A stretch of 64,000 nucleotides of DNA from Candidatus Poribacteria bacterium. Its GTDB lineage: Bacteria; Poribacteria; WGA-4E; JAJDTR01. Shown piece by piece: positions 11,359 through 32,658 of this stretch. The notes under the pieces were generated by a model that was given only the letters and a program-made list of their open reading frames with translations, was not told the origin of the DNA and did not search any database. Made by a program: the position numbers and the translations under genes. Each line of letters opens with the position of its first letter. Positions within the stretch are counted from its first letter, which is position 1. The DNA lies in contig CBDDPW010000021.1 of the NCBI GenBank assembly GCA_965232535.1, forward strand, positions 519,700 to 583,699. The letters run 5' to 3'.

Positions 11359-11473
11359 GGGATCTCTATCAGGATCTACTATTGGAACTCTATCGCAGTC
11401 ACTATCCGTTCCTTTGATCCTTCACTATTCGTTCAGTTGATCACTCATTGTCCATTCGCTTGATCACTACTAC
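11359..11473 (+). repeat. class I array: head GGGATCTCTATC/GGAACTCTATCGC, three 23-nt units ending TTGATC, then a CTACTAC tail
   Basis: Units agtcactatccgttcctttgatc / cttcactattcgttcagttgatc / actcattgtccattcgcttgatc, read directly. Confidence 0.8.
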
Positions 11474-11519
11474 AAACCGACATCGTTGATATAGATTGAT
11501 GGACTAAACAGTTGCAGAG

Positions 11520-14381: not shown

Positions 14382-14384
14382 GAA

Positions 14385-15200
14385 TCAAACCTCGTAATGC
14401 TGTTGGCTTTCGGCAAACCGTTGCTGGAGGGCAAAGAAAGCAGTGACAAACAGTATGACGCCAATCACGTCGAACCACCACGGTTGCAACTGAATTGGTC
14501 CTGTCGGATCCGATGAATACCCTCTGATTTCAATCTCCATCCCCAAAACAACCATCGGTATCGCATTTTTAAATGCATGTCCGAAGACACATGGCACGAT
14601 GGAACCTGTCCGAATTCTCCACCAAGCCAGGATTATCCCACCTACGAAGGCAGCTACGAATTGCCACGGATTAAAATGGAAGATGCCAAATAGCAGAGCC
14701 GAGACGACAATGGATTTTGGAACTGAATATTTGCGTAGGAATCCATCCAAAATTAGGCCGCGGAACAGGATTTCTTCCGTTAGGGGCGCAACAACTATGA
14801 GCGCCAGAATCGATCCCCAAAGACTCTGTTCCGCTCGTACCAAATCCACCAGCTGATTCATCAACCATTCCGGCGCGGGCAGCAGTGTACGTAGAACGTT
14901 GTCCGCCTCGGAGAGGAGGATTTCCAGGCCCAAGATTAGGAGTACCATTAACGGATATAGGGAACGCTCTACAGATGCGGCGGGACAGATATCCGAAAAC
15001 GATCGACTTGATTTGCCGATGCCCCATTTAATTATTAGTCCAAACGCTACGGCACTGATTGCCCCCTGGCAAGCGGGATGTTCATGCAACGGATAATCAA
15101 TCCAAACACCGACCAAATAGAGGGGGATACCTACGAGAATCAGGAGAAAGAGGAGGCATATTAACAGCCAAACGGACTGGCGGATATCCGGATAGTACAC
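14385..15200 (-). CDS. CPBP (CAAX/Abi) family intramembrane glutamic endopeptidase
   Basis: Multi-TM protein with EEILFRG, FGIFH and HAFKN motifs. Confidence 0.85.
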   Translation of the reverse strand: MYYPDIRQSVWLLICLLFLLILVGIPLYLVGVWIDYPLHEHPACQGAISAVAFGLIIKWGIGKSSRSFSDICPAASVERSLYPLMVLLILGLEILLSEADNVLRTLLPAPEWLMNQLVDLVRAEQSLWGSILALIVVAPLTEEILFRGLILDGFLRKYSVPKSIVVSALLFGIFHFNPWQFVAAFVGGIILAWWRIRTGSIVPCVFGHAFKNAIPMVVLGMEIEIRGYSSDPTGPIQLQPWWFDVIGVILFVTAFFALQQRFAESQQHYEV

Positions 15201-15349
15201 TTTATTTTGTGTGTCCTCATAAGCCGACTTTTTTCAGTTTGTCTTTGTATCCTCAAAACCTGATTGAAAAATCGGCGGCAAAGCCATTATTGGCCACCAA
15301 TTGCTGTTTTTATACACCTTGAGGATTTCTGACACGGAAATGGCTATGT

Positions 15350-15426
15350 GAGTTCTATCGCACCCCTTAATCGCTGGTATGATCGCTATCCGCTCCTTTG
15401 TTCGGTCCCCAGCCGGTCACTTGATC
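15350..15426 (+). repeat. degenerate class I-like array
   Basis: gagttctatcgc head and ..cacttgatc end with diverged units. Confidence 0.45.
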
Positions 15427-15649
15427 GCCAGTCGGAGCCTTCCGTGAAGCCTCGTGTCTTTTGGCAACAGTATAGAGTTTAACGACGATTTACCCCTATA
15501 TCGTTTCATCGGATTTGACTCGTACGAGGCATGCCAACGGACTAAATCAGAAAATTAAGCCTGTTGCAGATTCTAGTCTTCGCAACTAATAATCACATAT
15601 ACTAGCGGCTCATAGCACTCTTTTTGTCCACAATGGACTTTTACCGCTC

Positions 15650-15732
15650 GGGATTTTCTATCGCGTTGGATTAACTATGGGAGCTCTATAGCACGGGATT
15701 GGCTATCGCCCTTGTTATCCACTCGGTTGATC
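15650..15732 (+). repeat. degenerate class I-like array
   Basis: gggattttctatcgc ... ggctatcgcccttgttatccactcggttgatc. Confidence 0.4.
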
Positions 15733-15798
15733 TGTTTGATTGCGGTATGCACAAACCAAATGAAGTTGAAAAAATAATTCGGTAATATCTTAACGATG

Positions 15799-15830
15799 CT
15801 CGGTGCGGTTAGGAAACCGCACCTACCGAG
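15799..15830 (+). repeat. REP-like hairpin class B (GGTGCGGTT-N4-AACCGCACC-TACCG)
   Basis: ctcggtgcggttaggaaaccgcacctaccgag. Confidence 0.8.
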
Positions 15831-16010
15831 TTTAGGGAAAACTAGAATTACCGATTTAAATACTTAATCTTCATACAGTTTGTGCTACAAGGGCGCGTCC
15901 GATATCGTCATCGTTCATCGAATGACAATGACAATACGCGATGACACGAATATAAACGACAATTGCATCGCGGACATCATAGATGAAGCTAACGATGGCT
16001 ATTGCGCGCG

Positions 16011-16397
16011 TTAAATCTCCAGATCCAGTTCATCAAAGACTTCTTGGGCATCATGAAATGCGGAATGAGCGGCGGGTAAACCGCAGTATATTGCCGATTG
16101 GAGCACGACTTCTTTGATTTCTTCGATGGAAACGCCGTTGTTTAGCGCGGCTTTGACATGCAGTCGAAACTCGGTTTTTCTATTGAGAGCAATCAGCATC
16201 CCGACCGTAACGAGACTTCGAGAGTGCTTAGACAACTGGGGACGTGACCAGACCTCGCCCCACGCGTAACGGGTCGTCAAATCTTGGAAGGTGTCACTAA
16301 AGGCGGTGGCATTGGCTAGGGATCGATCAACATGCTCGTCTCCAAGGACTGCTCTTCGGATTTGCATGCCTTTCTCATAGCGTTCGTTTTCATCCAT
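16011..16397 (-). CDS. carboxymuconolactone decarboxylase (AhpD-like) family protein
   Basis: 128-aa ORF. YAWGEVWSRP..LVTVGMLIALNR..EEIKEVVLQSAIYCGLPAA is the typical CMD/PcaC pattern. Confidence 0.85.
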   Translation of the reverse strand: MDENERYEKGMQIRRAVLGDEHVDRSLANATAFSDTFQDLTTRYAWGEVWSRPQLSKHSRSLVTVGMLIALNRKTEFRLHVKAALNNGVSIEEIKEVVLQSAIYCGLPAAHSAFHDAQEVFDELDLEI

Positions 16398-16436
16398 CTG
16401 TCAATGTTCCTCGTGAATTCAGTGCCTCGGAGAAAG

Positions 16437-16583
16437 GAGGTCGCGATCAGGAGGGGGAACTCTATCGCCTTCCTTATTCAGTCAGTTGATCTCCTACAGT
16501 CGGGTTTCGCTGTGCTTAACCCAACTTATGATTTCTCTCGGTAGCTCTCGCGCAGGTTACGGCATACGGAGTATGCCTACTAC
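16437..16583 (+). repeat. mosaic of modules: A-variant, class I (1 unit), D-variant, class F hairpin
   Basis: ggaggtcgcgatcaggaggg; ggaactctatcgccttccttattcagtcagttgatctcctacag; tcgggtttcgctgtgcttaacccaacttatg; ggcatacggagtatgcctactac. Confidence 0.75.
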
Positions 16584-16596
16584 ATTCGCTGGCAAA

Positions 16597-17595
16597 TCAC
16601 GGTCTGTCCAATTCAACTACGCCGTGCTGTCGGCATAGGACGGCTTCATAGAGTCTCATTGTCCCGAGGCAGTCGTGGATGCTTGAAATCGGCTCACACT
16701 CTTCTCGGATAGCGCTGGCGAATTCGGTTAGGCTGTATCCGTCGCCGGTCAGTTCGCCGTTGCGTTGATCGCTGAAGTTGTCCGTAAAATGGTTTTGGGA
16801 TTCGGTGTAGTGGGCAATGCACCATAAACCGTCGAGGACAATGTATTCGCCCTGACCGGTGATTTCAACGCGGTCATAGTTACGCTTCCATAGTCGGTGG
16901 CTGTTGAGTTGCAGCGTTCCGACGGCTCCACTCTCGAACTGCAGGGTTACGGCAAAAGCGCCTTGTCCCCCAATTTCGTTGTGGAAAGAGGAAATCGCTT
17001 TGACCTCTCCACCGATGTAGCGAATCAGATTGAAATAGTGAATTGCGAAATCCAGCAAATAGACTTGCGCCGCTCCGCACCCCACTGTCTCGCCCGATTT
17101 GGAAAGACGCGAGCGGTAGTTTCCGGAGCAGAATGATCCAAGAATCTGAGTCGCATTGCCGAAACTCTCCCGCTGCATGATTTCTATGGCATGTTTCACG
17201 CCGAGGCTAAACCGCCGCTGAAAGTTCACCATCACGACTTTGTTCCTACGATTCGCGACTTCGGCTATCTCGGTCGCTGCCGCGAGGGTTTCCGCGGGCG
17301 GTTTCGGTACGAAGACGTGATATCCGGCTTCAAGAGATTCGCAGACAAGGGATTGGCGTGCTTCGGGGCCGGCACAGATAATCATGGCTTCAATGTCTTC
17401 ATTTTCCCACATCTTATGGTAGTCCGAATACCATTGCCCCGTGCCGAATTTCCCCAGCACATTTTTTGCTCTTTCCTCGTCAAGCTCGCAGATCACCTGT
17501 AAGGCAATCGGGGCGAAGTGCAGTGCCGGATAGAGTGTATGCCTCGCGAAGCCGCCTGCGCCGATAAAACCTGTTCGCAGCGGTTTTAAGTCCAT
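16597..17595 (-). CDS. Gfo/Idh/MocA family oxidoreductase
   Basis: 332-aa ORF. N-terminal GFIGAGGFA Rossmann motif and VFVPKPP (EKP-like) motif. Confidence 0.8.
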   Translation of the reverse strand: MDLKPLRTGFIGAGGFARHTLYPALHFAPIALQVICELDEERAKNVLGKFGTGQWYSDYHKMWENEDIEAMIICAGPEARQSLVCESLEAGYHVFVPKPPAETLAAATEIAEVANRRNKVVMVNFQRRFSLGVKHAIEIMQRESFGNATQILGSFCSGNYRSRLSKSGETVGCGAAQVYLLDFAIHYFNLIRYIGGEVKAISSFHNEIGGQGAFAVTLQFESGAVGTLQLNSHRLWKRNYDRVEITGQGEYIVLDGLWCIAHYTESQNHFTDNFSDQRNGELTGDGYSLTEFASAIREECEPISSIHDCLGTMRLYEAVLCRQHGVVELDRP

Positions 17596-17995
17596 GAATG
17601 CCTCTCCTGCCGCCCCTTAGCGGTCATTGACCTTGTGCCATAAATTTATAGTAGACATTTTTCCAAAAAAAATCTGGAGTCTATATGACTTCGGCCGTGT
17701 CGTAACTCGTTATTGTATGGGGCCGATGGCGTGTTAACTCAGTTTTTTCAGTTATTTCGGTTTTTTCAGTTTGTTCACAGCACGTTTTTTTGGGGCATTG
17801 TGCAGGGCTTCCGCCTGCTTGAGCACCCGCGGAGCAAGTCATGACGCGGGTTTTCAGGTTGTTGAGGTGCGGTACATGTTAGCGGAAAAAGCATTGTAAA
17901 GATCGTTTTAACGAAGTTTTGTTTCAGGTATTATCTTGCCGGCTACCGGACTTGCGTTACCGGCGGCGGATTTCTGCCTCACGAACCTGTCAGCC

Positions 17996-18178
17996 TAAAT
18001 GGTGATCTCGGTAAGTGTTTATGTAAGTGAGGAGGTCGCGATTCGGAGATCGCTCCTACAATCAGTCGGGTGACGTAAGGCGGTGTACGGCACACGGGAA
18101 TCTCTATGGGATCTCTATCGCCTTCACTATTCGTTCAGTTGATCACTCGCTATCCACTCGCTTGATCCTACTACTTTG
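17996..18178 (+). repeat. composite repeat: leader taaatggt..gtaagtga, class A hairpin, linker, class I (2 units), CTACTAC
   Basis: Read directly. Same module order as 18445-18668 and 34995-35130. Confidence 0.8.
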
Positions 18179-18444
18179 CTTGATCGCCGCTTTTCTCATT
18201 GAACCGATACAGCGAAAAGAGATGCCAACGGAGCGGGTTCTTCGGAATCGTAATGCTAACAAAATGCTAACAGAAAAAAGTCCCGCAGCCATGACGGTTT
18301 GTCATGATGCGCTACAATATACCACATACACGTTAAGTTATCAATCTAAAAGTAACGAGTTGCGGGAGGGAAGAAAAGTTGGCTGACAGTGGTTATTCCA
18401 TTTCTTCAAAATGACTGTGCACAATTGGTAGATGGCGTGAGTTG

Positions 18445-18668
18445 GAATCGCGATTCGGAGATCGCTCCTACAATCTGTCCGGTGATGTAAGGCGGTGTAC
18501 GGCACACGGGGATCTCTATCGCACTCGCTATCCACTCGCTTGATCCTACTACTTTGAAACCATGCCATATACTCTTGGCGAATGAACCACTAAATGGTTT
18601 TCTCGGCAAGTGTTTATGTAAGTGAAGATGTCGCGATTCGGAGATCGCTCCTACAATCTGTCGGGTGG
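18445..18668 (+). repeat. composite repeat: class A, linker, class I (1 unit), ctactactttgaaaccatgccatat.. segment, leader, second class A
   Basis: Class A copies at 18447-18473 and 18630-18657. The leader at 18590-18629 is about 90% identical to 17996-18034. Confidence 0.8.
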
Positions 18669-18819
18669 TGGGTTCTTTTGTGCATTCGATTTGCTGAAGA
18701 TATACCAGCCCCGTGGCTGCTTTGTTTGCTAATCAGTGTTTTCTGTATTTTCCGCTGTATCCGCGATTCAGACAATAATTATGCGCACTCCTCAAATATA
18801 TAGAGGATTGGAGCGGCGG

Positions 18820-19695
18820 CTACTCCTCAAGAAAGTGTGTTATTTCTTCGACCACCTTTTTTGCGTTCTCGCCAAGGATCATTGTAAGGTGGTTGCCGGG
18901 CACTTTCACATATTTTCCATCTGTAAGCAGCCTAGCCGTTTCCGAGGCATACTCGCAGGGCAAGACGGGCGGTGTGCCGGGGGCGCCGTAAGCCCCCGGA
19001 GCGTTGAGCAACAGCGTCGGATGCTCCACTTGAGCCACAAGCTGGCACCAATCTACCTCGTCGCTCTTCGCCGATGCTTCTTGAATTACTTTGCGAGGCG
19101 TGCGAGGTTTCACGCTTCCGTCCGACCGAAATTCGACATCCGCTCGATAGTGTGCTTCGATGTATTGGTCCCAATACCCGTCAAGGAACGGCATCCCCTT
19201 CGCCAAATTCAGGTAGGCGTCCCACGATGGGAATACTTTATCGAGCCGGTCCAGCGAGGGTTTAAGGAGGTCGCCGGTGCCGGAGGGCCAGGATATGGCG
19301 GAATCAACGACGACCAGTTTACTGAAACGTTCCGGGTACTTTGCCACCATGTAGAGCGCCAACATGCCGCCAAAGGAGTGCCCACCGAGCACTACTTGCT
19401 CGAACCCCAGTACATCCAACATGCCCACTACGTCCGCCGCGTGGTCAACCATGCCGTAGCCGGTGTCGGGTTTATCGCTCAGCCCGCGGCCCCGTAAGTC
19501 GAGAGCGAGGACGCGGTGCGCCTTGTTTAAGCCGGCGTGAATGAGACCACCAAACGAGTAGGCGTTATTTGTCAACCCCGGCATGAGCACCAAGGGGGGA
19601 TCGGCGCCGGCGTAATCCAAGTAGTGAATTCGGATGTTGTTCGTACGCGCAAAGGCTGCCATCACGCTGTTCCCGGACGGAATTGAGGGCACCAC
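18820..19695 (-). CDS. alpha/beta-fold hydrolase
   Basis: 291-aa ORF. HG-oxyanion region LVLMPGL, nucleophile elbow GHSFGG, C-terminal His context (VPGNHL). Confidence 0.85.
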   Translation of the reverse strand: MVPSIPSGNSVMAAFARTNNIRIHYLDYAGADPPLVLMPGLTNNAYSFGGLIHAGLNKAHRVLALDLRGRGLSDKPDTGYGMVDHAADVVGMLDVLGFEQVVLGGHSFGGMLALYMVAKYPERFSKLVVVDSAISWPSGTGDLLKPSLDRLDKVFPSWDAYLNLAKGMPFLDGYWDQYIEAHYRADVEFRSDGSVKPRTPRKVIQEASAKSDEVDWCQLVAQVEHPTLLLNAPGAYGAPGTPPVLPCEYASETARLLTDGKYVKVPGNHLTMILGENAKKVVEEITHFLEE

Positions 19696-19924
19696 CGGGA
19701 ATTATCATACCAGATTTTCTGCTACGCGTCAACCTGAAATTGGGAGATTTTTGGTGATTATATAATCAATTTTGGGGGTGGTGCATATTGGAACAATCGT
19801 ATCAATCTGTGACTGTGGAGCCCCTCTCTTTTTCGTTCTTGACTGGAGGTGTAATGAATGGGAACTCCACGACCGAATTTTGGAGAAGATTAATGGAGAT
19901 TTGGAATTGGGGATTATCGGCAAC

Positions 19925-19994
19925 TGTCTGAATCACGGATTACGGGATCTCTACCGCGCTCGCTATTCACTCGCTTGCTGGATTACGCAGATTA
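19925..19994 (+). repeat. module J (tgtctgaatcacggattac...gattacgcagatta) with a class I unit in its centre
   Basis: Compare with the compact copy at 43138-43182. Here 19944-19980 is gggatctctaccgcgctcgctattcactcgcttgctg. Confidence 0.65.
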
Positions 19995-20389
19995 CACGGA
20001 TAAAAAACACTTACCCGGCGTAGTTTTGCAGCTTGAAGATTTTTATTGGCGATTATGATGTAAGAAAGAGAAGAGATTGACGAGCAGCCAAATTAGGCCT
20101 GACCCTCTTCAGCGAAAAGAGGTTGACATCTAGAAATGCGCATTGTATGGTAATAATTCAGTTCGGCTTTAGGAACGACAATGGTTATTGCTCATAATTA
20201 TCACCAACGTAAATTCAAACCTGTGCGGAAAAGCGCTTAAAACGATTCAGTTTTTGTACGAAGGACTTGACATCTCCTTTTCGTAATAGGAAAAATTAAT
20301 CGGGTTGGCGCAAGAATTAGCGGCGCTGAATGGTTAGTCTAAGTTGAAAACCAACCGCAACGCCAACACCATAAACATACGGAGCATTC

Positions 20390-22486
20390 ATGACACAACC
20401 AGACAACATCCACACGATACTTAAAGACACTGATTATCATCTTTTTCTGTTCAAGGAAAACGAAATTGACAGTCTGCGTGATAGAATTTTCTTTAAAACT
20501 GTTAGAGAAAAAGAACGCCCGTTTGTAAACTGTATCGTGCGGAATAAGGACATTCAGTTAAAACCTGAGGAAGTCGTGCGTCAGCTTTATGCGGCAAGAC
20601 TCATTAATCAATACGGCTATTCCAAAACACGGTTGGCTTTTGAATATTCTGTTAACTTTGGCAGGCAAAAGAAAAGCGCCGATATTGTCATTCTCGACAA
20701 AGATCGGCCGGATACCGCTTATATTATCGTTGAGTTGAAAAAGCCCAAACTCAAGGACGGTAAAAACCAACTGCGCTCCTATTGCAACGCAACCGGAGCA
20801 CCGATTGGGGTCTGGACAAATGGAGAGTTTATTTCTCATTACCATCGCAAAGACCCAAATTACTTCGAAGAAATTAGCGATATTCCTAACGTTAACCAAG
20901 CCTTGAAGGATATTCTCAATGAACGTTTCACTTTGAAGGGCCTCATCCTCAAGGACAAGATTGCCACCGAGAGAAAATCGCTGAAAGACATTGTTTTGGA
21001 AATGGAGGATGAGGTGTTGGCAAATGCCGGAGTAGATGTCTTTGAGGAGGTTTTCAAACTCGTATTCACTAAACTCTATGATGAATATGAAAGCCGCAGA
21101 GATAAGGAATTCCTCAACCGATCTGTCCGACTACGCACTAAAACCGCTATACATGAGAATCAGCCCAATTATCTTTATGGCGAGGATTATGAAACCCTCA
21201 AGGCAGTGGTTAAGGAAATTCCAGATGGCGACTTCCGCCCGATGGAATTTAGAAACACCGGACAGACTGACACAGAACTTAAGAACAAGATCCAGCGTCT
21301 TTTTGACGCTGCAAAAACACAGTGGCCTGGGGTTTTTTCAGAAGGCTCCGCTTTTGAACTCACTGACAGCCATTTGGCTATTTGCGTAGCCAGCTTGCAA
21401 GATGTCAAGCTGTTCAACTCCAATCTGTTGGTGGTGGATGAAGCTTTTGAATATTTGGTGAACAAATCTGCCAAAGGCGAAAAAGGGCAGTATTTTACGC
21501 CACGCCATGTAATTGATATGTGCGTGGAGATGCTGAATCCCAAACCCGGCGAATATATGATTGATACCGCGTCAGGCAGTTGCGGTTTCCCGGTGCATAC
21601 CATCTTCAAAATCACTGGCCACCTTTTCTCCAATCAAGAAATACCAGAAGCAGATAAGCAGAACGTGCGCAAAGTCTTCGGTATTGACTTCGACGAAAAA
21701 ACAGTTAGGGTTTCCAGAACGTTGAATCTGATTGCCGGGGATGGAGAAAGCAATGTTTTGCACTTGAATACGTTGGATTTTGAACGCTGGAGCGACAGAA
21801 CAGAGGGTGACAGAAAATGGATAAGAACCTATGCCGAGGGTTTTGAACGGTTGGAAAAACTGAGAACCAACATAGGGGAAAACCAGAACTTTAACTTTGA
21901 CATTCTGATGGCAAATCCTCCCTTTGCGGGAGACATTAAGGAGAGCCGTTTGCTGCATAAATACCAACTCGGATTTAAGGCAAACAAGGAACCGCAAAGC
22001 AAAGTTGGACGCGACATTCTGTTTATTGAGCGCAATCTGGATTTTCTCAAACCAGGTGGGCGCATGGCGATTGTGCTTCCGCAGGGAAGGTTTAATAACA
22101 CATCAGATAAACATATCCGCGATTTTGTTGCCGAGCGTGCACGCATCCTGGCGGTCATCGGTCTACACATTAACACTTTCAAGCCCCACACTGGTACTAA
22201 GACTAGCGTACTGTTTGTGCAAAAATGGGACGATGGAGACCTTTGTCCCAAAGTTGACGATTATCCTATTTTCTTTGCCGTGAGCGAAAAAGGTGGGAAG
22301 GACAACTCTGGTGATTACGTCTATCTCAAGAATGAGGATTCGAAGGACAAGCTCGACAGAAATGGGCATCTAATCGTCGACCACGATTTACATAACCACA
22401 ACGGCGAATTGCCGGATGGAATCGCTGAAGCGTTTATTGAATGGGCGAAGGCCGAGAGACTGTCATTTTGGCGTCATGATGAATGA
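20390..22486 (+). CDS. fusion of an HSDR_N-type PD-(D/E)xK nuclease domain and a gamma-class N6-adenine DNA methyltransferase (HsdM/BcgI-A-like)
   Basis: N-terminus: KPEEVVRQ..SADIVIL..AYIIVELKKPK..QLRSY..WTNG (HSDR_N pattern with a D...ExK core). C-terminus: methylase motif I IDTASGSCGF and motif IV NPPFAG. GGAG RBS before the ATG. Confidence 0.85.
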   Translation: MTQPDNIHTILKDTDYHLFLFKENEIDSLRDRIFFKTVREKERPFVNCIVRNKDIQLKPEEVVRQLYAARLINQYGYSKTRLAFEYSVNFGRQKKSADIVILDKDRPDTAYIIVELKKPKLKDGKNQLRSYCNATGAPIGVWTNGEFISHYHRKDPNYFEEISDIPNVNQALKDILNERFTLKGLILKDKIATERKSLKDIVLEMEDEVLANAGVDVFEEVFKLVFTKLYDEYESRRDKEFLNRSVRLRTKTAIHENQPNYLYGEDYETLKAVVKEIPDGDFRPMEFRNTGQTDTELKNKIQRLFDAAKTQWPGVFSEGSAFELTDSHLAICVASLQDVKLFNSNLLVVDEAFEYLVNKSAKGEKGQYFTPRHVIDMCVEMLNPKPGEYMIDTASGSCGFPVHTIFKITGHLFSNQEIPEADKQNVRKVFGIDFDEKTVRVSRTLNLIAGDGESNVLHLNTLDFERWSDRTEGDRKWIRTYAEGFERLEKLRTNIGENQNFNFDILMANPPFAGDIKESRLLHKYQLGFKANKEPQSKVGRDILFIERNLDFLKPGGRMAIVLPQGRFNNTSDKHIRDFVAERARILAVIGLHINTFKPHTGTKTSVLFVQKWDDGDLCPKVDDYPIFFAVSEKGGKDNSGDYVYLKNEDSKDKLDRNGHLIVDHDLHNHNGELPDGIAEAFIEWAKAERLSFWRHDE

Positions 22487-22516
22487 AACAAAGGGGGATG
22501 AGGTTAGTATTCGATT

Positions 22517-23272
22517 ATGAGTTATATAGGAAACGAACAACATTGGAAACAGCTGATAGAAGTAGATTGGCTTGGACAATATGTCAAAACTTGGATCGCA
22601 TTCAATGCTTGGTATAGAAATAGCTTTAAGCTGAAAAACGATTGGAGAATTATTGAAGCAATCAAGAACGACGAAGGCGACATTTGCACGAAGATTGAGA
22701 CTTTTTTGGTAGGCAACAGCTCGGACCAGGAAACGTTCCAGTCAGCCGTAGCAGACCTCCATCGGGCGCTCTCAGATACAATCATAAAGTCCAAAGATAG
22801 AAAGATTTCCTTTGAGGAAATTGAAGATTATAGGCACGCCAAATCCGTTGATGAGATAAAAAACAGGGTGTCATACAGAATTGAAATAGACATTGTCGAG
22901 AAAAAGCGCCTTATTACGATAACAAATTCCAAAGGAACAACGATTTATTCTGCAACTATAGACTGGAAGCAAGAAAGGGACAACTATAATCCGCATCAAG
23001 TGGACACATTATCACACGCGCAAAATGGGGCTCTCCGCGGGTTTCTTAAGGAATCATCACCAATTCACAACTTACTTCGCTATGGGAGCAATCCTCTTGA
23101 GATTGGCAGTTTCAAATTCACAGACAACCCGAACCTAATCGCCCGGGGAATAATTGAAGTCCTTTACCAATTGAGAAATGCTCTTTTTCACGGGGAAATA
23201 ACTCCTGATCTGAAAGCACAGAGGACATATCAGCCGGCGTATCTCATTCTAAAGTCAATAATCCCAATGTGA
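22517..23272 (+). CDS. HEPN-domain protein (putative RNase) embedded between the methylase and S genes
   Basis: 251-aa ORF 30 nt after the upstream stop. C-terminal VLYQLRNALFHGEITPD carries the Rx4H HEPN signature in an RN..H context. Confidence 0.6.
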   Translation: MSYIGNEQHWKQLIEVDWLGQYVKTWIAFNAWYRNSFKLKNDWRIIEAIKNDEGDICTKIETFLVGNSSDQETFQSAVADLHRALSDTIIKSKDRKISFEEIEDYRHAKSVDEIKNRVSYRIEIDIVEKKRLITITNSKGTTIYSATIDWKQERDNYNPHQVDTLSHAQNGALRGFLKESSPIHNLLRYGSNPLEIGSFKFTDNPNLIARGIIEVLYQLRNALFHGEITPDLKAQRTYQPAYLILKSIIPM

Positions 23273-23374
23273 AGCAACATGGAAGGCGCCAAGCAGTGTC
23301 GAGAATTGAACTGTGGCTTTAATATCTGGAACCAATAGATGTCAAACACGGTAGCACCATGACGAGGGCTAACG

Positions 23375-24778
23375 ATGCAGTATTCAATTATAAATTTCAG
23401 TCAAATTAGCACGCAATTGCTCAGACTTGAAGCTGAATTTTACAATTCGAATTCGCTGTTGAATTCCTACTGTTTTTCAGGCGTAGAAGTGATTGATTTC
23501 GTTCAGTACGGAACCTCTGAAGAATTGAATGAAGAAAATAAAGGGTATCCAACTTTACGATTAAATGAGTTTTCGTCATTTTTCATAAAACATCCTCAAA
23601 AATATTGCGACAAAATTGACGAGGAAACATACCAGTCTCTCGCTTTGAAAAAAGGTGATGTTTTAATCTGTAGGACAAACGGTAATCCTCGGCTCGTAGG
23701 AAAATCGGCGATTGTGCCAGAAGATTGTAATTATGCTTTTGCGTCTTACTTATTCCGAGTTAGACCAAAAGAGGAGATATTGTTGCCAACAACCCTCGTT
23801 ACATATTTAAATTCAACAGTGGGTAGGGCCGAAATTGAGAAGCATCTCATGGTAAGCAATCAAGCAAATTTCAGTCCGGCTAAATTTCGAGAAATGCTGA
23901 TTCCACGGTTTGGAGAAAAAATTCAGTCACGTGTTGACAAATCCATTTGGGAGTCTTACTGCAAACACAGCAATTCAACGCAGATTTACACGCAAGCTGA
24001 GACTCTCTTTCTCTCCGACTTGGGCCTTGCTAACTGGAAACCTAAACATCGGCTAGCTTTTGTTGAGGGGTTCGCCAAGGCGCGACAGGTAGAACGTCTT
24101 GATGCTGATTATTTTCAACCGAAATACGATGAAATGGTCAGAGCGATAAAAAAATATCCAGGTGGCTGGGATACCCTTCAAAACTTGACAACAATAAAGA
24201 AATGCGTCGAGGTAGGAAGTGACCAATACCTTCCGGAAGGGATCCCTTTTGTCCGCGTTAGCAATTTGAGTCCGTTCGAAATTACTGAAGAAAAGTACAT
24301 CTCCGAGGCGATGTATGCAAAGTTGATAAAACACCAACCTAGACAGGGTGAAATACTCCTGAGCAAAGACGCAACTCCAGGTATTGCTTATTATCTGCGT
24401 GAACAACCACCGAAGATGATTCCTTCAGGCGGGATACTGCGTTTGGAGAGCAAAACGGACGACATTGAGAACGAGTATTTGATGTTAGTTCTAAATTCAA
24501 GGCCGACTACGGAGCAAGTAAACCGCGATGTAGGCGGGTCAGTGATACTCCATTGGAGACCAGATCAGGTTAAAGCAACAATTATTCCAATCCTTCCCAA
24601 GGATAAGCAAGTACAAATCCGAAATAAGATTACTGCATCCTTTGAGTTAAGAAAGCAGTCTAGGCAACTACTGGAATGCGCCAAACGGGCAGTTGAGATT
24701 GCAATTGAGCAAAACGAGCAAGTTGCCGTTGAATGGCTGGAAGATGCAACTAATAGACTCCGTTGTAAACGTCCCTAG
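23375..24778 (+). CDS. hsdS: restriction-modification specificity subunit (HsdS-like, two target-recognition domains)
   Basis: 467-aa ORF. Duplicated TRD architecture with conserved spacer helices (e.g. SRVDKSIWESY.. and QIRNKITASFELRKQSRQLLECAKRAVEIAIEQ). Confidence 0.85.
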   Translation: MQYSIINFSQISTQLLRLEAEFYNSNSLLNSYCFSGVEVIDFVQYGTSEELNEENKGYPTLRLNEFSSFFIKHPQKYCDKIDEETYQSLALKKGDVLICRTNGNPRLVGKSAIVPEDCNYAFASYLFRVRPKEEILLPTTLVTYLNSTVGRAEIEKHLMVSNQANFSPAKFREMLIPRFGEKIQSRVDKSIWESYCKHSNSTQIYTQAETLFLSDLGLANWKPKHRLAFVEGFAKARQVERLDADYFQPKYDEMVRAIKKYPGGWDTLQNLTTIKKCVEVGSDQYLPEGIPFVRVSNLSPFEITEEKYISEAMYAKLIKHQPRQGEILLSKDATPGIAYYLREQPPKMIPSGGILRLESKTDDIENEYLMLVLNSRPTTEQVNRDVGGSVILHWRPDQVKATIIPILPKDKQVQIRNKITASFELRKQSRQLLECAKRAVEIAIEQNEQVAVEWLEDATNRLRCKRP

Positions 24779-24788
24779 GCAATAGGTA

Positions 24789-25427
24789 ATGAGGCGCTAC
24801 ACTAAAATATTGATTTGGGAAAACAAGAAACGACTGAATAAGTTGATGGAATTCCGGGATTACATTCTTACGTACTTCAATAATAGCCGTGCCGAATGGA
24901 TAATGGATCCAAGAGTCGAAGAAGTCGCTGCACAAGAAGCTAGGTTCAACATTAATTTATCAATGAAAGAAGCCCACTCCATAATTCTTAAATCTGGAAT
25001 AACACCAACGCTTAGCTGGACTCTTCCGTCAGCAGGAGGAAGGTACTCAACGAATGTCGATCTAATTGAGAACATTTTTAACCTTCATGAATTCCAAATT
25101 GATCCGCGTCTTGTGCTTGATAACATTGATAGGGCAATTGGCATTTATGCATCTAACACCAGATCGGCACTTATCAGAATATTTAATCCGTTCTTTTACA
25201 TAGGGTTGGTGTTTGATTTTATTTCGGATCTGCCGTTTATTGCTCTTGGAAAACTTGGCTTTAACCACCACAAGGCAAGATCGTCAGCAATAGGTCGCCT
25301 AGTCAAAGGATTTTTTTACCTAATCACAGTCTTTGCCGCATTCCTAACGATATTGCATCTCTTGGGGTACTTGGATCCCGTAAAGCAGTTCGTGCATGAA
25401 TTTTTGGGCACAGAAAATGTCAATTAA
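24789..25427 (+). CDS. hypothetical protein with soluble N-domain and two C-terminal transmembrane helices
   Basis: 212-aa ORF starting 10 nt after the hsdS stop. Hydrophobic segments FNPFFYIGLVFDFISDLPFIALG and GFFYLITVFAAFLTILHLLGYL. Confidence 0.55.
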   Translation: MRRYTKILIWENKKRLNKLMEFRDYILTYFNNSRAEWIMDPRVEEVAAQEARFNINLSMKEAHSIILKSGITPTLSWTLPSAGGRYSTNVDLIENIFNLHEFQIDPRLVLDNIDRAIGIYASNTRSALIRIFNPFFYIGLVFDFISDLPFIALGKLGFNHHKARSSAIGRLVKGFFYLITVFAAFLTILHLLGYLDPVKQFVHEFLGTENVN

Positions 25428-25611
25428 ATTCGAGACAGCAAGCACCTTCGACCAGGCCAACCCAGTGTAGGCCATTTTGCATGAGGTCACCTGCATACGT
25501 ACGTAACGGAGCGAGTTTGAGATTTGCCCATGCAAGTGCAAGGGCTTCATTCGTCTAAAATGTAATGCTAAAGTATGATGTTCATTTAACTTACTAGATT
25601 TTGAGGATAAA

Positions 25612-26274
25612 ATGTACGAATTCACAAAACTTCAACTTTCCCAAGATGAATTCAACAACTTAGTTTTCATGGGTCCTGCTCCGTGGTGGGAAAAGGAACA
25701 AATTGACCCTCCTGGCTGGAATCAGCAGGAACGCGGCAGATTACCCCTCGAAGAACAGCACAAGTTTCTGCTTTGTCTTTGCCATAAGCCGCTGAAGCAG
25801 GTTGTCGAAATGGTTATAGAGAGATCCGGGGTTCAAGGGCCGAAACTAGATCCAACACGTGTTTTTCAGAATATATCCGTAGTAGCTAGAGGCGAGAAAA
25901 CTCCATGGTTTGAGCGCCATGTGTGTCTGAGTCGACATCTTCACAAGAGTCTAATGGACGAGCTCTGGGTTCGCAATCTTACGAAATTTGGCGGCGGAGA
26001 AAGAGATAAATGCCCAAGCGGGACGTTTTATACTGAGGATGGAAATCATCGCGCCCTTGTTTACGCAATGCACGTTGAGTGCGGCGTATTAAATTATGAA
26101 CCTGTTGCAGCAATACACGCAACATCTTGGGATCTTACCAGCGGTATCCTCGGTCACCAAGTCCAGAGCGCACATGTTTTGGAAAACAATGGTAGACTGC
26201 AAGACAATAATAGGCGCTTGGCGGGGCAATTCCACATGCACCTTGACCGCTATGAACGATTAACACATCCATAA
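25612..26274 (+). CDS. hypothetical protein with possible ParB/Srx-like fold
   Basis: 220-aa ORF. FYTEDGNHRALVYAM resembles the DGxHR..A core of ParB-like nuclease/Srx domains. Weak single-motif evidence. Confidence 0.45.
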   Translation: MYEFTKLQLSQDEFNNLVFMGPAPWWEKEQIDPPGWNQQERGRLPLEEQHKFLLCLCHKPLKQVVEMVIERSGVQGPKLDPTRVFQNISVVARGEKTPWFERHVCLSRHLHKSLMDELWVRNLTKFGGGERDKCPSGTFYTEDGNHRALVYAMHVECGVLNYEPVAAIHATSWDLTSGILGHQVQSAHVLENNGRLQDNNRRLAGQFHMHLDRYERLTHP

Positions 26275-26537
26275 ATGGAGAGGTTTTGATTTGCTTATGG
26301 GTTGACCATTGAAATAACCCGGCGGTTTCTAACGCCCTGAAACCTGTCGCCCCTCCGGGGCTTTGGTGTGTAGTGATTCCGCGTTACTATACACCTTTCG
26401 CACCTCTGGTGCTTTCAAAGGCTGGCGAAGGCTTAAATTATCGCACTTGTTATTCTGTCTTTTGATTCCTACAAAGGCTAGAGAGATCGCTCCCACAGAG
26501 GCGAACAAAGTTCCTATCACAGTATGGAGGGAATTGT

Positions 26538-28116: not shown

Positions 28117-31100
28117 TTAAATTAATTTGCGGTAAAGGATTAGATGTTCGTAATCGACTGTTACCTCAAAGGCAGTGCGGAGCGGGTCGGCGAAGGGGCT
28201 TCGTGCGGCGACTTCGCCATTGATAGTTTCGATGGTGATGCGGCGGAGCGGCTGAAATTCTCGTTTGAGAAGGTGGTGCAGGACGCCGAGGTAGTCTTGC
28301 ATTTGCGGGTCGTCGCACGGCACATTGAATTTCAGCGCCTTGCCGTTCCGCTCGGAAATCATGACAATCCGGCGTCCTCGATAGACGAGGTGGGTACCAG
28401 GAACGCGTTTGGGCAGTTTGCCTTTGACGGCGTCAAGCTGGACGCCGCATAATGACACAGGATCTGTAGCATTGATCCAGTAGACTTTATCTTCCGGAAG
28501 TTGCCGGCTCAGCACTCGAAACGCTTGATGCGAGATAAACTGGGGGCCGGGTATGCCGTGAAAGAAGTAGCCCGCCAATACTTCGCCGGACAATTCCATG
28601 ATTCGCAATGAGCGAAAAACGTTCGACCAGCGGAACGCGGGCAATTCTCGTTGAAGCAGTTCCCGAAACAGAATGCCGAATCGGTCCAGCAATAACCGGG
28701 CACGGTCTTTTTTGCGTTCCTCGGATTCAAGGAGGTCGTCCGAAAGGTCAAGTGTTGGCAGTCGATACCAGTTGCCGACATGGGAGCTTGAACCTTTCCA
28801 TCTGGCGAATTCGGCGCGGTGACTGATGCGGCGACCTCTTCCTCGCCCTTTGTCTAGTCCAATTTCGGGCGGCTTGAATTTGCTCAGTACACCTCGTCGG
28901 AGCGCCAAGAAGGTGTCGTTTGCTACACGCCCCTCCCAGACGAATTCCCAGAGTTGATTTGTTAACGGCGCAGCACTCATGCCCGAGGTTCGGAGCAGAG
29001 AGGAGAAATCGTATCGCCCCGTTTCGTCCGGGAAGAAATTGTCAAGATTGCTCTCTTCGCGGTTCTCAGGGTGATGCGTCCCAGCGTCATCTTCTTCCTC
29101 GCGATTGAACTCAACTTGGTTCGGCAGGTTTTCGGCGGTTTCTTCGTGCGTCAGGTCGAAATCCTCTTCAAAGTAGAAGGTCACGCGGCGATTTTCGCCG
29201 CCGATCCACCTTAGTCCCCCTTCCATCATGGCGGAATCGAGCCATGACGTGTTATAAACGCGACATCTGGCGGGGAAGATTTCCGATTCCCACAAGCCCG
29301 CCGTTGCCGGATAGCATACCAACTGCTCAATATTAGCTAGCAGACCGTCAACATCGTCCGCAGGAGTCATCAGTTTTTGGAAATTGGCAAGGAACACGGT
29401 CAGCCACTCAAATTCCAGCGGTTCAAAACTTGGCGCCGCATCTCGCCGCGTCAGGCGAAGAAGTATTTCGAAGTTTTCGCTATCGCACAGGGTTTCGGCT
29501 GTAGCATCCTCTACAAGCTGACCGACGATGATTTTCTGCGAATCTGCGAGGTCGTCCAGCGCCAGACTGAGTTGAACCTCCGCTATGCCGAGGGTTTCGC
29601 CAATGTACTCGGAAGTGGTGGGGCCATAGAACTGCAACCATTCACCGATGAGCGAGGTTAGCTCTTGAGCGTCATCAATCGCGGAGGAATCGGCGTCCTT
29701 AACTTCAGGCTTAAAGTTGAGCGGGGCTTTTGGTTTGCCGAGCGATTCACCTTCGATCGATTCTATATTGTCGTAGAGAACACAGATTCGGGGCATCATT
29801 TCCAAGGCAACAATCAGTGAATCAGAGGCTTCCGGCGGCTTTATCAGCACAAGCTTGTCGGCTATAGGCGAGAGAATCTCGTCCGGTTCAAGGTTGTGAT
29901 CGCTACGGATGGCTTCAAGAAGCGTGCTCCACTCCGGTGCGGGGATGAGGAGCCGTTCCTTCACCCAATCGATTAGATCTACCGGAGTCTGGGGGGAATA
30001 TCCCGGACTGAGTCGACGACGTTTCTGTTCAAACTGGCGGATAAGGGTTGAGGAAACGGTCGGACGCAACCCGGGTGTAAACACGACATCGCGCAGGAGG
30101 TCACTTCGGAGCATCGAGGTAGTGGTCGCCGTGGAATGGTCACTCATATACATGTACTCGTTTATCTGCCGCCAAGAGGCGTTTTGCGCCATCGGGCTGG
30201 CGTAGGCGGTGGGCACCGCTGTCCAACGGATAGAGCCGGATTCTAACTCGGCGAGCACTTGCTGGAGGCTGTCCAGATCAAACTCGTCTTGGAGGCAGGT
30301 ACGCCAGGTCTCAAGAAGGATCGGAAAATCCTCGTACTGCATTACGGCGGTCATCAACTTCTGCGACCGGAGTCGGCTCAACCAGAGCGGCATCCGTTGG
30401 TTCATCTTGCCGCTTGATGTCATGAGTAACGAGGTTCCGGCACACTCTCTGAACCTTGCGCAGAAGAATCCGGAACCTTCGAGTTGCCTGCGAAGCAGGG
30501 GTTGAAGCGTCGCACTTGTCACCAATGAGAGGAGTTCGGCAGGAGGCAATTCATCCGGAAGCATAAGGACAACGCCGTCATCCGTCGCGTGAACTTCGAG
30601 TTGATATCCGAATCGGTCTGCCCATGCCGACGCAAGCGCCACACCGTACGGTCGATTGACTTTGGCACCCCAGAAGGTGTGAATGACCACCTGATTCCCC
30701 GGTATCCCTTCATGACCGGTATCGACAATTTCGACGAGCACGTGGCGGCGATGCGGCAGATCGCAGTCCGTGGCATCTTTCTGTCTTTGGAGGAAATCTA
30801 CCAGTTGCATCGCAGCGGTCTCCTCCATGCAATTCAGGCACTGCAAATCGTCAAGATAGTCGGGATCGTCGAGACGCCGGTTTGCCTCCTCGAGAAAGAG
30901 ACCGATACGTTCAGAGAAGTGAAAATCCCTGCCATAATCTTCGGCGCGCCAAAACGGGGCTTCCTTCTGAGGCGATCGATTTGGCAGAACGAAAACATCG
31001 CTATGGGTGACACGCTCGACTCGCCACGTCTGCGTACCGAGCGTAAAGACGCTCCCCTCTCCATTTTCCCAGACAAACTCCTCGTCAAGCTCACCAATTC

Positions 31101-32658
31101 GAGCGTTGGTTTCGGCGTGGCGCATGTGAAAATAGCCGCGGTCGGGTATAGTCCCGCCGAACATGTAGACCGCCTGAACAGCTCCCTTCCTAGCGGACAC
31201 GGTATTGTCGAGCCGGTCAATCGAAACACGCTGTTTGAGTTCGCGGATTCGGCTGTCGGCGTAACGCCCCGCCAACATATTCAGTACTTGGTCAAACTGC
31301 TCACGCCCCAGGTGACGATAGGGGTAGCTCGTCCTGAGATGCGTGTAGAGTTCATCCATGTCCCACGTCTGCATCGCCGCCATTGAGACGATTATTTGGG
31401 ACAGCACATCGAGGGGACATTTCACGGGCTTGACAGCCTCGATCGCCTGTTCACCGATAGCCTCCGCGAGCACGGCGGCATCAAGAAAATCGCGTGCATG
31501 CGTCGGATAAACCGTCGCACGGCTTACTTCGCCGACTTGGTGCCCGGCGCGGCCGATTCGCTGAATGGCGGAAGATATCGAGAACGGTGATTGGATAAGA
31601 ACGACTTCGTCCAGTGAGCCGATGTCAATACCCATTTCCAGCGAACTCGTGGCAATGATAGCCTTCAATTCACCGGCTTTGAGTTTGGATTCGACAGACT
31701 CGCGAAGCTCGCGCGACAAGGATCCGTGGTGCGCATAGGCGACGGGCTCCTCCTCCTCGGCGTTTATCATCATCGTCAGCCGCTCACAGAGCCTTCTGCT
31801 GTTGGCGAAAAGTAGGGTAGACTGATGTCGATTTATGATTTTCTTGAAATCTTCAACGAGGGGATCCCAGAACGACTCGTGCCCCGGATCCTCGGCGGCT
31901 TCATCCGGATATCGGACGTGCACTTCGTACTGTTTATCGGCTTTTGAAGAGATTAGCGATACGTGTCTCGGTGTATATTGCGGATTATACAGGTCGCCAT
32001 CAGTTCTGTATCCGCCAACGAACTCGGCAACAGTCTCCATGGGTCGAATTGTGGCGGATAGCCCAATCCGCTGGAATTCGCCAGAAAGTGGGATGAGACG
32101 GTCCACGGCGGTAATCAGATGCGTTCCGCGCTTTGTGCCGAAAACTGCGTGAATCTCGTCAAGAATTACGGTAGAAATCTTGGTCAGGTTGGATCTCCCG
32201 CCTCCGGAACTTAGGAGAAGATTCAGGCTCTCCGGGGTGGTGATGAGAATTTCCGGCGGGTGGCGCTGCATTTGGCGGCGATCAGAGTGCGGCGTGTCTC
32301 CACTACGGGTCAGAACCCGGATATTGGGGAAGGGGTGTCCCGCGTCTTCGAAGACCTGTCTTAGTCCCCGCAGCGGCTCCAGAAGATTTCGACGAATGTC
32401 GTTGTTGAGCGCTTTCAGAGGTGAGACATATAGGACGCTGGTGTGTCCGAGGGGCAACTCCTCCGTGACCAGTTGATTGATTGCCCAGAGAAAGGCTGTC
32501 AGGGTCTTGCCGCTACCGGTCGGCGCGGTGACCAGAACGTGTTCGCCTCCGACAATCTTGGGCCATGCGTGGGCTTGAGCATCCGTCGGATCGCCAATTG
32601 CCTCGGTAAACCATTTCGCGACGAGTGGATGGAATTGGGAAAGAGGGGTTTGGGGCAT
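28117..32658 (-). CDS. lhr: Lhr-like large ATP-dependent DEAD/DEAH-box helicase
   Basis: 1513-aa ORF. Walker A APTGSGKT, DEIH box, SAT-like LSATI, HHGSLS, and the long C-terminal extension typical of Lhr. Confidence 0.9.
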   Translation of the reverse strand: MPQTPLSQFHPLVAKWFTEAIGDPTDAQAHAWPKIVGGEHVLVTAPTGSGKTLTAFLWAINQLVTEELPLGHTSVLYVSPLKALNNDIRRNLLEPLRGLRQVFEDAGHPFPNIRVLTRSGDTPHSDRRQMQRHPPEILITTPESLNLLLSSGGGRSNLTKISTVILDEIHAVFGTKRGTHLITAVDRLIPLSGEFQRIGLSATIRPMETVAEFVGGYRTDGDLYNPQYTPRHVSLISSKADKQYEVHVRYPDEAAEDPGHESFWDPLVEDFKKIINRHQSTLLFANSRRLCERLTMMINAEEEEPVAYAHHGSLSRELRESVESKLKAGELKAIIATSSLEMGIDIGSLDEVVLIQSPFSISSAIQRIGRAGHQVGEVSRATVYPTHARDFLDAAVLAEAIGEQAIEAVKPVKCPLDVLSQIIVSMAAMQTWDMDELYTHLRTSYPYRHLGREQFDQVLNMLAGRYADSRIRELKQRVSIDRLDNTVSARKGAVQAVYMFGGTIPDRGYFHMRHAETNARIGELDEEFVWENGEGSVFTLGTQTWRVERVTHSDVFVLPNRSPQKEAPFWRAEDYGRDFHFSERIGLFLEEANRRLDDPDYLDDLQCLNCMEETAAMQLVDFLQRQKDATDCDLPHRRHVLVEIVDTGHEGIPGNQVVIHTFWGAKVNRPYGVALASAWADRFGYQLEVHATDDGVVLMLPDELPPAELLSLVTSATLQPLLRRQLEGSGFFCARFRECAGTSLLMTSSGKMNQRMPLWLSRLRSQKLMTAVMQYEDFPILLETWRTCLQDEFDLDSLQQVLAELESGSIRWTAVPTAYASPMAQNASWRQINEYMYMSDHSTATTTSMLRSDLLRDVVFTPGLRPTVSSTLIRQFEQKRRRLSPGYSPQTPVDLIDWVKERLLIPAPEWSTLLEAIRSDHNLEPDEILSPIADKLVLIKPPEASDSLIVALEMMPRICVLYDNIESIEGESLGKPKAPLNFKPEVKDADSSAIDDAQELTSLIGEWLQFYGPTTSEYIGETLGIAEVQLSLALDDLADSQKIIVGQLVEDATAETLCDSENFEILLRLTRRDAAPSFEPLEFEWLTVFLANFQKLMTPADDVDGLLANIEQLVCYPATAGLWESEIFPARCRVYNTSWLDSAMMEGGLRWIGGENRRVTFYFEEDFDLTHEETAENLPNQVEFNREEEDDAGTHHPENREESNLDNFFPDETGRYDFSSLLRTSGMSAAPLTNQLWEFVWEGRVANDTFLALRRGVLSKFKPPEIGLDKGRGRGRRISHRAEFARWKGSSSHVGNWYRLPTLDLSDDLLESEERKKDRARLLLDRFGILFRELLQRELPAFRWSNVFRSLRIMELSGEVLAGYFFHGIPGPQFISHQAFRVLSRQLPEDKVYWINATDPVSLCGVQLDAVKGKLPKRVPGTHLVYRGRRIVMISERNGKALKFNVPCDDPQMQDYLGVLHHLLKREFQPLRRITIETINGEVAARSPFADPLRTAFEVTVDYEHLILYRKLI

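Follow-up and report, generated by a model that had tools for sequence, protein, structure and literature searches.

Gene X, located between a modification gene and a specificity gene in a Candidatus Poribacteria genome, encodes a candidate new accessory RNase effector. Its product carries an Rx4H motif that is conserved throughout a large and unnamed protein family, and intact members of this family were found only next to one clade of motor-less restriction modules. The data are best read as an RNase effector whose action is coupled to that of the restriction proteins and, judged from conserved sequence features and from analogy with known systems, gene X is probably an RNA-cutting back-up to the restriction system. 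The relation to HEPN proteins, the RNase activity, the binding to the restriction proteins and the trigger are what we infer from the comparisons described below.

Gene X and its genomic surroundings

The window that was analysed is a stretch of 64 kb, and the coordinates given here refer to this window. The genes and the region of interest are the following:

19700..26400, no strand: low-G+C islet in the composition profile, containing the RM, X and S genes and two non-conserved ORFs
20390..22486, + strand: RM subunit gene, 698 aa (Pfam HSDR_N_2, N6_Mtase and Eco57I; PADLOC MTase_I PDLC03034, 4e-287)
22517..23272, + strand: gene X, ORF with ATG start and a translation of 251 aa, from a family without annotation in which the R-[N/C]-x3-H-G motif is invariant
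23375..24778, + strand: S subunit gene, 467 aa (Pfam Methylase_S; PADLOC Specificity_I 9.6e-32 over two stretches; EcoKI S in the PDB)

The stop of the upstream gene (22486) and the start of gene X are separated by 30 nt, another 102 nt lie between the end of gene X and the start of the S gene (23375), and all three genes are located on the + strand. The ORF, its spacing to both neighbours and the common strand are therefore as described in the initial annotation. By the measure of sequence conservation gene X is a real gene, because one search gave 119 homologues and an exhaustive profile search gave 711 clusters, distributed over many phyla. Scans with consensus promoters and terminators gave only background levels.

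The region around the three genes shows a G+C content of 41-46%, compared to 50-55% in the flanks, and this lower G+C content suggests that the islet was acquired horizontally, which is probably how it arrived in this genome. Of note, the two ORFs downstream of the S gene (24789..25427 and 25612..26274) were considered as parts of the system and rejected; they are absent from all related loci.

The flanking genes form a motor-less restriction module

The upstream gene had been described as a methylase that, together with an hsdS gene, belongs to a restriction-modification operon. This is correct insofar as the protein contains a gamma N6-adenine methyltransferase (N6_Mtase match of 3.9e-31 in Pfam) and the S protein is a two-TRD specificity subunit, each half of which matches type I S models. 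However, the RM protein is a fusion of a nuclease and a methyltransferase, and hsdR is missing. The two domains of this fusion are predicted at the following positions:

20564..20887, + strand: PD-(D/E)xK nuclease domain, residues 59-166 of the RM subunit (HSDR_N_2 8.7e-27; D98, E115-x-K117 and Q127-x3-Y131)
21434..22276, + strand: N6-adenine methyltransferase domain, residues 349-629 of the RM subunit, with intact D-x3-G-x2-GF and NPPF motifs

The listed nuclease residues and the methyltransferase motifs are invariant in 19 RM homologues, down to an identity of 28%. The best PDB sequence match of the RM protein is RM.BsaXI (4e-21), ahead of type I HsdM, with the best stretch covering the methyltransferase region only. 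An HsdR gene was found neither in the 64-kb window, in which the sole helicase is Lhr-type and encoded on the opposite strand, nor in the flanks of related loci. On these sequence features, RM and S are best read as a motor-less, type IIB-like module and not as a classical type I hsdRMS system. The likeness to the type IIB enzymes BsaXI and BcgI lies in the N-terminal PD-(D/E)xK domain joined to a gamma N6-adenine methyltransferase, the separate two-TRD S subunit and the lack of a motor. In the papers found on them, type IIB enzymes are two-component systems of RM and S, and a third gene with an Rx4H motif is a new element at the X locus.

RM and S are also homologous to MAD2 and MAD5 of the MADS system (NCBIfam 2.7e-84 and 2.5e-38; PADLOC mad2 and mad5), but with 283.7 bits against a cut-off of 720 for MAD2, and 132.1 against 400 for MAD5, the matches are far below the equivalog cut-offs. 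A search of gene X against PADLOC, including the mad models, gave nothing at E<=0.01, and none of the other ORFs scanned beside the trio, including the two downstream ORFs, match mad models.

A large protein family that escapes existing models

In one search, 119 homologues of gene X were found at E<=1e-13, none of which had a Pfam domain or a name. The exhaustive profile search yielded 711 clusters at 50% identity with a threshold of E<=1e-3, and 366 clusters with E<=1e-10. The closest homologues come from Candidatus Poribacteria, and further hosts are Bacteroidales, Aquificota, many gut Clostridia, Lentisphaeria, Helicobacter and IncF plasmids of Klebsiella. Remnants of the gene were detected in 466 records of Klebsiella and related plasmids, and no homologue was found among phage records. 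Two apparent fusions, with MobA/MobL and AAA_25 (P0204 and P0234), were not counted as true architectures, since X is cut short in these proteins at residue ~57, apparently through a rearrangement or an insertion.

None of the family models in Pfam, NCBIfam, PADLOC v2 and PHROGs matches the X protein, and searches with sets of 41 and 134 family members against Pfam, NCBIfam and PADLOC gave no significant match either. A profile of the C-terminal part, run against a set of 5.8 billion proteins, retrieved short fragments of the X family and nothing else. The family has no name in any source, and a description was absent from the literature searched. Since Pfam, NCBIfam, PADLOC v2 and PHROGs contain no model for it, defence-system finders that are built on these libraries would miss the family.

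Gene X depends on the restriction module, but not vice versa

As a next-door partner, gene X is very constant. In 30 of 33 X-anchored loci an RM and an S gene were adjacent and on the same strand, the other three loci contained only X fragments, and an intact X away from an RM+S pair did not occur among the 33. The 30 linked loci come from Poribacteria, Bacteroidales, Clostridia, Lentisphaeria, Aquificota, Helicobacter and a Klebsiella plasmid, and the genes frequently overlap or stand only a few nt apart. The gene order is M-X-S in Poribacteria and Helicobacter, M-S-X in Clostridia, Bacteroidales and the Klebsiella plasmid, and X-M in Aquificota; the trio on the Klebsiella plasmid (NZ_LR890357.1) is intact. 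The view, already put forward in the initial annotation, that gene X is linked to the modification and specificity genes on either side of it is thus borne out.

The picture is different when RM is taken as the anchor. In a scan of 35 metagenome loci, X was present in L041, L046 and L053, and a long variant, X', in L058, L060 and L063, whereas RM and S were found without X in L047, L049, L055, L061, L062 and L068. The next gene in these X-less loci encodes the housekeeping enzyme glycerol-3-phosphate dehydrogenase (L047), a defence-type protein (GmrSD_N in L055 and DUF4357/RAMA in L068) or a recombinase (L062), and there was no recognisable next gene in L049 and L061. Because intact X is always located beside RM and S, while RM and S often stand alone, X is an optional, clade-specific add-on that needs RM+S, and not the other way around. 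RM+S modules lacking X are common, indicating that X is dispensable for their basic function, and an obligatory third subunit, which was considered as a role for X, was rejected on the outcome of the RM-anchored scan. The one-way dependence argues both against a core subunit and against a free-standing toxin. Gene X had been described as inserted between the methylase and S genes, and its optional nature with respect to M and S agrees with this wording, but it is a recurrent partner of a specific clade and not a random insertion.

These loci also bear on the possibility that X acts on its own as a toxin or abortive-infection gene, merely resides in restriction loci and is functionally uncoupled from RM and S. 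Such a gene could be missing next to RM+S, as was observed, unrelated defence genes are commonly embedded in RM operons (Payne et al. 2024 preprint), and sister loci hold other defence genes at the position of X, namely GmrSD_N in L055 and DUF4357/RAMA in L068. However, in 33 loci from many phyla no intact X was found outside one RM+S clade, the adjacency of X to RM+S outlasts changes in gene order, phage copies of X are absent, and a lone RNase without antitoxin or sensor would require restraint. We therefore regard an uncoupled toxin as quite unlikely.

An invariant Rx4H motif

The peptide IIEVLYQLRNALFHGEITPD, corresponding to residues 212-231 of the X protein, contains the motif on which the assignment as an RNase was originally based:

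23174..23191, + strand: R220-N-A-L-F-H225, putative catalytic Rx4H motif (invariant columns in 134 representatives; 175/175 sequences), with the codon of R220 at 23174-23176 and that of H225 at 23189-23191

In a single sequence this motif is no more than chance would give: 28 of the 54 long ORFs of the window contain R-x4-H (43 occurrences in 19,414 residues; 4 for RNxxxH). Given how common it is in these ORFs, the case stands on conservation and context. In an alignment of 134 representatives, with identities of 20-53%, the only invariant columns are R220 and H225, followed by the near-invariant G226, P230, Y217, Y238, D17, N30 and W32. In a smaller set (n=41), Y217, R220 and H225 were among the invariant residues, and R-x4-H was found at the same place in all 175 distinct family sequences. 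Thus, the R-N-x3-H motif reported for gene X is present, its Arg and His are invariant across the family, and a lack of conservation among homologues, named at the outset as a finding that would speak against the proposal, was not observed. The residue following the Arg is Asn in 99 and Cys in 76 (43%) of the 175 sequences. By the HEPN criterion this polar residue is usually N, D or H, and Cys is atypical.

The Arg and His might also serve binding and not RNA cleavage, in which case X would be a non-catalytic accessory or regulatory subunit of RM+S that might tune cleavage versus methylation, connect sites with each other, or act as a binder of DNA, RNA or a nucleotide. The tight and often overlapping arrangement with the RM and S genes would fit such a subunit, as would the fact that neither profiles nor folds point to a nuclease family (see below), and some HEPN-like domains are binding modules only (PMC3710099). 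On the other hand, Arg and His residues that keep a constant distance and are the sole invariant residues over such divergence form the signature of a catalytic site. Moreover, in many loci the RM+S unit works in the absence of X, and known type IIB enzymes, e.g. BsaXI, require RM and S only. We consider a non-catalytic subunit unlikely, although it ranks first among the alternatives to an RNase effector, followed by the uncoupled embedded toxin and, last, the DNA nuclease discussed below.

A predicted split helical core with a swappable insert

AlphaFold models were made of two family members, the protein encoded in the window (pLDDT 90.4, pTM 0.87) and a 30%-identical member (pLDDT 91.5, pTM 0.82), and the two models agree. 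They divide the X protein into three predicted parts:

22568..22777, + strand: N-terminal helical half of the core, residues 18-87 (AlphaFold pLDDT 90.4; conservation; kept in X')
22778..23128, + strand: beta-rich insert, residues 88-204 (secondary structure in two models; outside the X profile match in L058, L060 and L063)
23129..23260, + strand: C-terminal helical hairpin, helices 205-224 and 232-248 (structure; conservation; kept in X')

The N-terminal half is modelled as four helices (18-36, 42-50, 53-65 and 69-87) and carries the near-invariant D17, N30 and W32 (WIAFNAWY). The insert of ~115 residues consists of a four-stranded sheet, helices and a hairpin, so the protein is not the minimal HEPN protein that it was initially thought to be. 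The C-terminal hairpin is the most conserved part of the family. In both models, R220 is near the end of helix 205-224, H225 opens the next loop, and 232-248 is the last helix. The motif helix ends at 224 (220 in P0119), with the Arg four residues before the end and the His as the first residue of the loop. The peptide with the motif had been assigned to the C-terminal helix; it is present at residues 212-231, but the models place the motif where the penultimate helix ends. Seen at the level of predicted secondary structure, the placement of the Rx4H motif matches published descriptions of HEPN proteins (PMC3710099).

With 366-473 aa, the variant X' (L058, L060 and L063) is longer than X, and the X profile matches only its N-terminal helices and its C-terminal hairpin, including the RNALFH motif; its middle region is different from the X insert and larger. 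Since X' retains both ends of the core and differs in the middle, the conserved unit of X is, by sequence conservation and modelling, a helical core that is split by an exchangeable insert, and this layout is HEPN-like.

Tests for HEPN membership

Profile searches did not support the classification of gene X as a HEPN protein. Its identification as a HEPN RNase had been made conditional on a hit in such searches, and these were negative in Pfam, NCBIfam, PADLOC and PHROGs. The HEPN models, comprising Pfam clan CL0291 and later HEPN_* models, gave nothing at E<=0.01 for X itself. Among other members of the family, sub-threshold matches were found to HEPN_Swt1 in 3 of 41 members (best 4e-4, below the cut-off), to HEPN_Apea in 1, and to DUF4209 in 5 of 134. 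These matches fall on regions 64-136, 24-102 and 219-258, and they were dropped as convergent support for HEPN since the regions are inconsistent and the scores are at noise level. For a profile-profile comparison by hhalign we used one bona fide HEPN family, pEK499_p136 (PF18736), built from a plasmid gene annotated as 'HEPN family nuclease'. This gave a single local alignment with RNxxxH in register, with a probability of <2%, an E-value of 0.035-0.13 and a length of 18-57 columns. PDB sequence searches with the full profile, a C-terminal profile of 52 residues and an insert-deleted profile returned no HEPN protein.

Fold comparisons gave a similar result. In Foldseek searches of the PDB with the two models, the best E-values were 0.11 and 0.32, and HEPN proteins were absent from the top 50; a search of BFVD with one model gave nothing significant (no E<0.01). 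The interrupted helical core may defeat Foldseek, so the predicted fold may be either new or too interrupted for this method. In conclusion, X is HEPN-like in its motif, in the position of the motif and in its layout, but its membership of the superfamily is unproven, because the profiles are negative, the hhalign alignment covers the motif only, and Foldseek shows no HEPN neighbour.

Foldseek matched the insert, weakly and without significance, to DNA or ssDNA binders, namely MvaI, PUR-alpha and the p32 fold, and this, together with the absence of HsdR from every locus, could be taken to mean that X is a DNA-directed nuclease or nickase that acts within restriction and replaces the missing HsdR. 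However, these matches have E>0.2, the RM subunit already possesses an intact and conserved PD-(D/E)xK site, X lacks a metal-binding acidic motif, and RM+S exists without X. A role as DNA nuclease is therefore very improbable.

Comparison with known restriction-associated RNases

HEPN RNases inside R-M operons are an established theme, with PrrC functioning as a second line of defence (PMC3710099), and nearly all occurrences of PrrC are inside type I RM systems (Payne et al. 2024 preprint). Like PrrC of the EcoprrI type Ic hsdMSR system, X is a protein with an Rx4-6H motif that is encoded in an RM locus and almost only there, and the proposed logic, by analogy, would also be the same, i.e. a latent RNase that is silenced by restriction proteins and acts as a second line of defence. 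There are also differences. PrrC contains a regulatory N-terminal ABC ATPase, whereas X, with 251 aa, has none and matches no PrrC or RloC model; searches of Pfam, NCBIfam and PADLOC agree with the initial annotation that X has no ATPase or other known sensor domain. Furthermore, the host system of PrrC has an HsdR, while at the X locus the nuclease is fused to the methyltransferase and HsdR is absent. No sequence or profile similarity between X and PrrC was detected. X thus resembles PrrC in logic and not in architecture.

The single-domain HEPN proteins that have been listed in R-M operons (Abi2/AbiD/AbiF, ApeA, AbiU2, AbiJ, C6orf70/DUF4209 and pEK499_p136; Anantharaman et al. 2013, PMC3710099) are another group to which X can be likened. 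Like X, they are small proteins encoded in restriction loci, with a conserved R-[polar]-x3-H motif where a helix ends and with a variable insert that interrupts the helical core. Unlike these families, X shows no significant model match, carries a large beta-rich insert and its own WIAFNAWY helix, and has a Cys after the Arg in 43% of the sequences. HEC-08, a DUF3644 HEPN protein with zinc fingers (Payne et al. 2024 preprint), is comparable in being a single gene embedded in a methylase-containing defence system. It is a validated embedded defence gene, and defence depends on the His of its Rx4-6H motif (Payne et al. 2024 preprint). HEC-08 is, however, recognisable as HEPN by Pfam and by structural comparison with the PDB, which X is not, and its host system (Hma) and domain make-up differ from those of X.

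An Rx4H effector embedded in a restriction locus is a type that has been known since 2013. What we did not find in the libraries and papers searched are the X family itself, the split core with a beta-rich insert, and the exclusive tie to a clade of motor-less nuclease-methyltransferase and S modules.

A model for the function of gene X

According to the model that we favour, X is a latent Rx4H RNase that docks on a self-sufficient RM+S module and is freed when restriction fails, a scenario to which we assign about an even chance. RM and S would form a complete DNA restriction-modification enzyme that can do without further subunits. X would bind the RM+S complex, probably via its insert, and be kept silent there until restriction is blocked or overwhelmed during an infection. 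The freed Rx4H site would then cut RNA in a metal-independent manner, resulting in a translation stop and an aborted infection. The release of a latent RNase when restriction is inhibited has been proposed for R-M-linked HEPN proteins in general, and has been shown for PrrC (PMC3710099).

A further scenario, which we see as possible but rather doubtful, is that RM, S and X constitute an undescribed three-component defence system in which X is a partner with a new fold, its split helical core carrying a convergent or extremely diverged Rx4H motif, and its swappable insert functioning as a sensor or dock. The motor-less nuclease-methyltransferase would sense how the DNA is methylated, and X would respond to failed or engaged restriction by cutting RNA. 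If so, X would found a nuclease family without a solved relative, and its insert would be the part that senses either a phage anti-restriction protein or the condition of the RM complex.

Implications

For the restriction modules themselves, the analysis implies that members of this clade annotated as 'N-6 DNA methylase' are in fact nuclease-methyltransferase fusions, and that 'orphan M+S' pairs of the RM clade may be complete restriction systems. As for gene X, few of the known restriction loci with a latent RNase (PrrC, Abi-type HEPN) have been dissected, and all of them are recognisable by existing models. The X family is confined to one clade of type IIB-like restriction modules that lack a motor. 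Should X indeed be an Rx4H RNase under the control of RM and S, the locus would provide a compact three-gene model, free of an ATPase, in which immunity at the DNA level is wired to suicide at the RNA level, and it would show that not all HEPN-like effectors have been catalogued so far.

A low-G+C islet around the RM-X-S module

The gene for X, the Rx4H-motif protein, and the RM and S genes on either side of it (nuclease-methyltransferase and specificity subunit, respectively) are located in a block of distinct base composition. The block, the two ORFs that follow S within it, and a helicase gene further downstream are listed below.

Window 19700-26400: low-G+C block of ~6.7 kb, 41-46% G+C against 50-55% in the flanks
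Window 24789-25427: 212-aa ORF in the low-G+C islet, without a family match
Window 25612-26274: 220-aa ORF in the low-G+C islet, without a family match
Window 28117-32658, minus strand: Lhr-type helicase of 1513 aa (DEAD, Helicase_C, DEAD_assoc, WH_Lhr)

This drop in G+C content between the two flanks suggests that the block is a horizontally gained islet that carries the entire RM-X-S module. Neither of the two small ORFs is kept beside X in other loci, and the pair may make up a small cassette of its own, for defence or addiction. The 212-aa ORF ends in two hydrophobic, transmembrane-like stretches, and the 220-aa ORF contains a DGNHR motif, akin to the ParB/DUF262-type DGxxR nucleotide-binding motif. 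The Lhr-type helicase matched the PADLOC DpdJ model (3e-152), and is probably a housekeeping Lhr outside any defence system.

Neighbourhoods of the module in other genomes

In three gut metagenome contigs (L002-L004), a preQ0/queuosine-precursor gene set was found next to a module with the order M-S-X.

L002 ~2600-5450 and 10900-20800: the two flanks of the module, with the preQ0/queuosine-precursor gene set

The full preQ0 set, consisting of PTPS, the radical SAM protein QueE, GTP cyclohydrolase I, QueC, and QueF, is located upstream. Fic and two large uncharacterised proteins are encoded on the opposite side, together with two helicases, one UvrD-like and one of the SNF2/DEAD type. The arrangement resembles an island for 7-deazaguanine (Dpd-like) DNA modification located beside the module. 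On a Candidatus Poribacteria chromosome (OY282386.1; L001/L006), the M-X-S trio lies within a defence island, with a DUF4238 protein upstream and a PARIS-like pair of an AAA_15/AAA_21 ATPase and DUF4276 downstream, the latter adjoined by a Pup-proteasome/UBact cluster. One RM+S locus without X (L055) encodes a GmrSD_N protein followed by the ORF listed here.

L055 9518-10132: 203-aa ORF, RNILAH motif at position 134 of the protein, no Pfam match

This ORF may be a further unannotated Rx4H protein in the niche of X.

Klebsiella plasmids and disrupted copies of X

X was matched by 466 plasmid records, nearly all from Klebsiella, of which a single one covered at least 80% of the protein. Two of these records, both Klebsiella IncF plasmids, were looked at: in the record with at least 80% coverage (NZ_LR890357.1, L034) the M-S-X trio is intact, and in NZ_CP103606.1 (L035) X is reduced to a 138-aa C-terminal remnant and M and S are lost. 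At both loci two DUF262 genes are next in line, arranged similarly to TgvAB, a GmrSD-type pair in Vibrio cholerae (PMC11411939). In two further X-family proteins (P0204 and P0234), X is cut off at approximately residue 57 and continues in-frame with a MobA/MobL relaxase or AAA_25 N-terminus; these represent one X allele broken on two occasions, apparently by a mobile element inserting into the gene.

The RM gene and its clade

Some relatives in the metagenome loci L050-L053 carry RM and S as one ORF of ~1170 aa, a single chain as in type IIG/IIB fusions, and in one of these loci (L053) X is located immediately upstream of the fused gene. The RM gene of the window was initially read as a methylase, and is in fact a fusion.

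Window 20390-22486: nuclease-methyltransferase fusion, PD-(D/E)xK site intact

The site comprises D98, E115-x-K117, and Q127-x3-Y131, and hsdR is absent throughout the 64-kb window. The RM homologue on NZ_LR890357.1 carries 'N-6 DNA methylase' as its sole annotation. Within this clade, M+S pairs that look like 'orphans' may be complete type IIB-like restriction systems.
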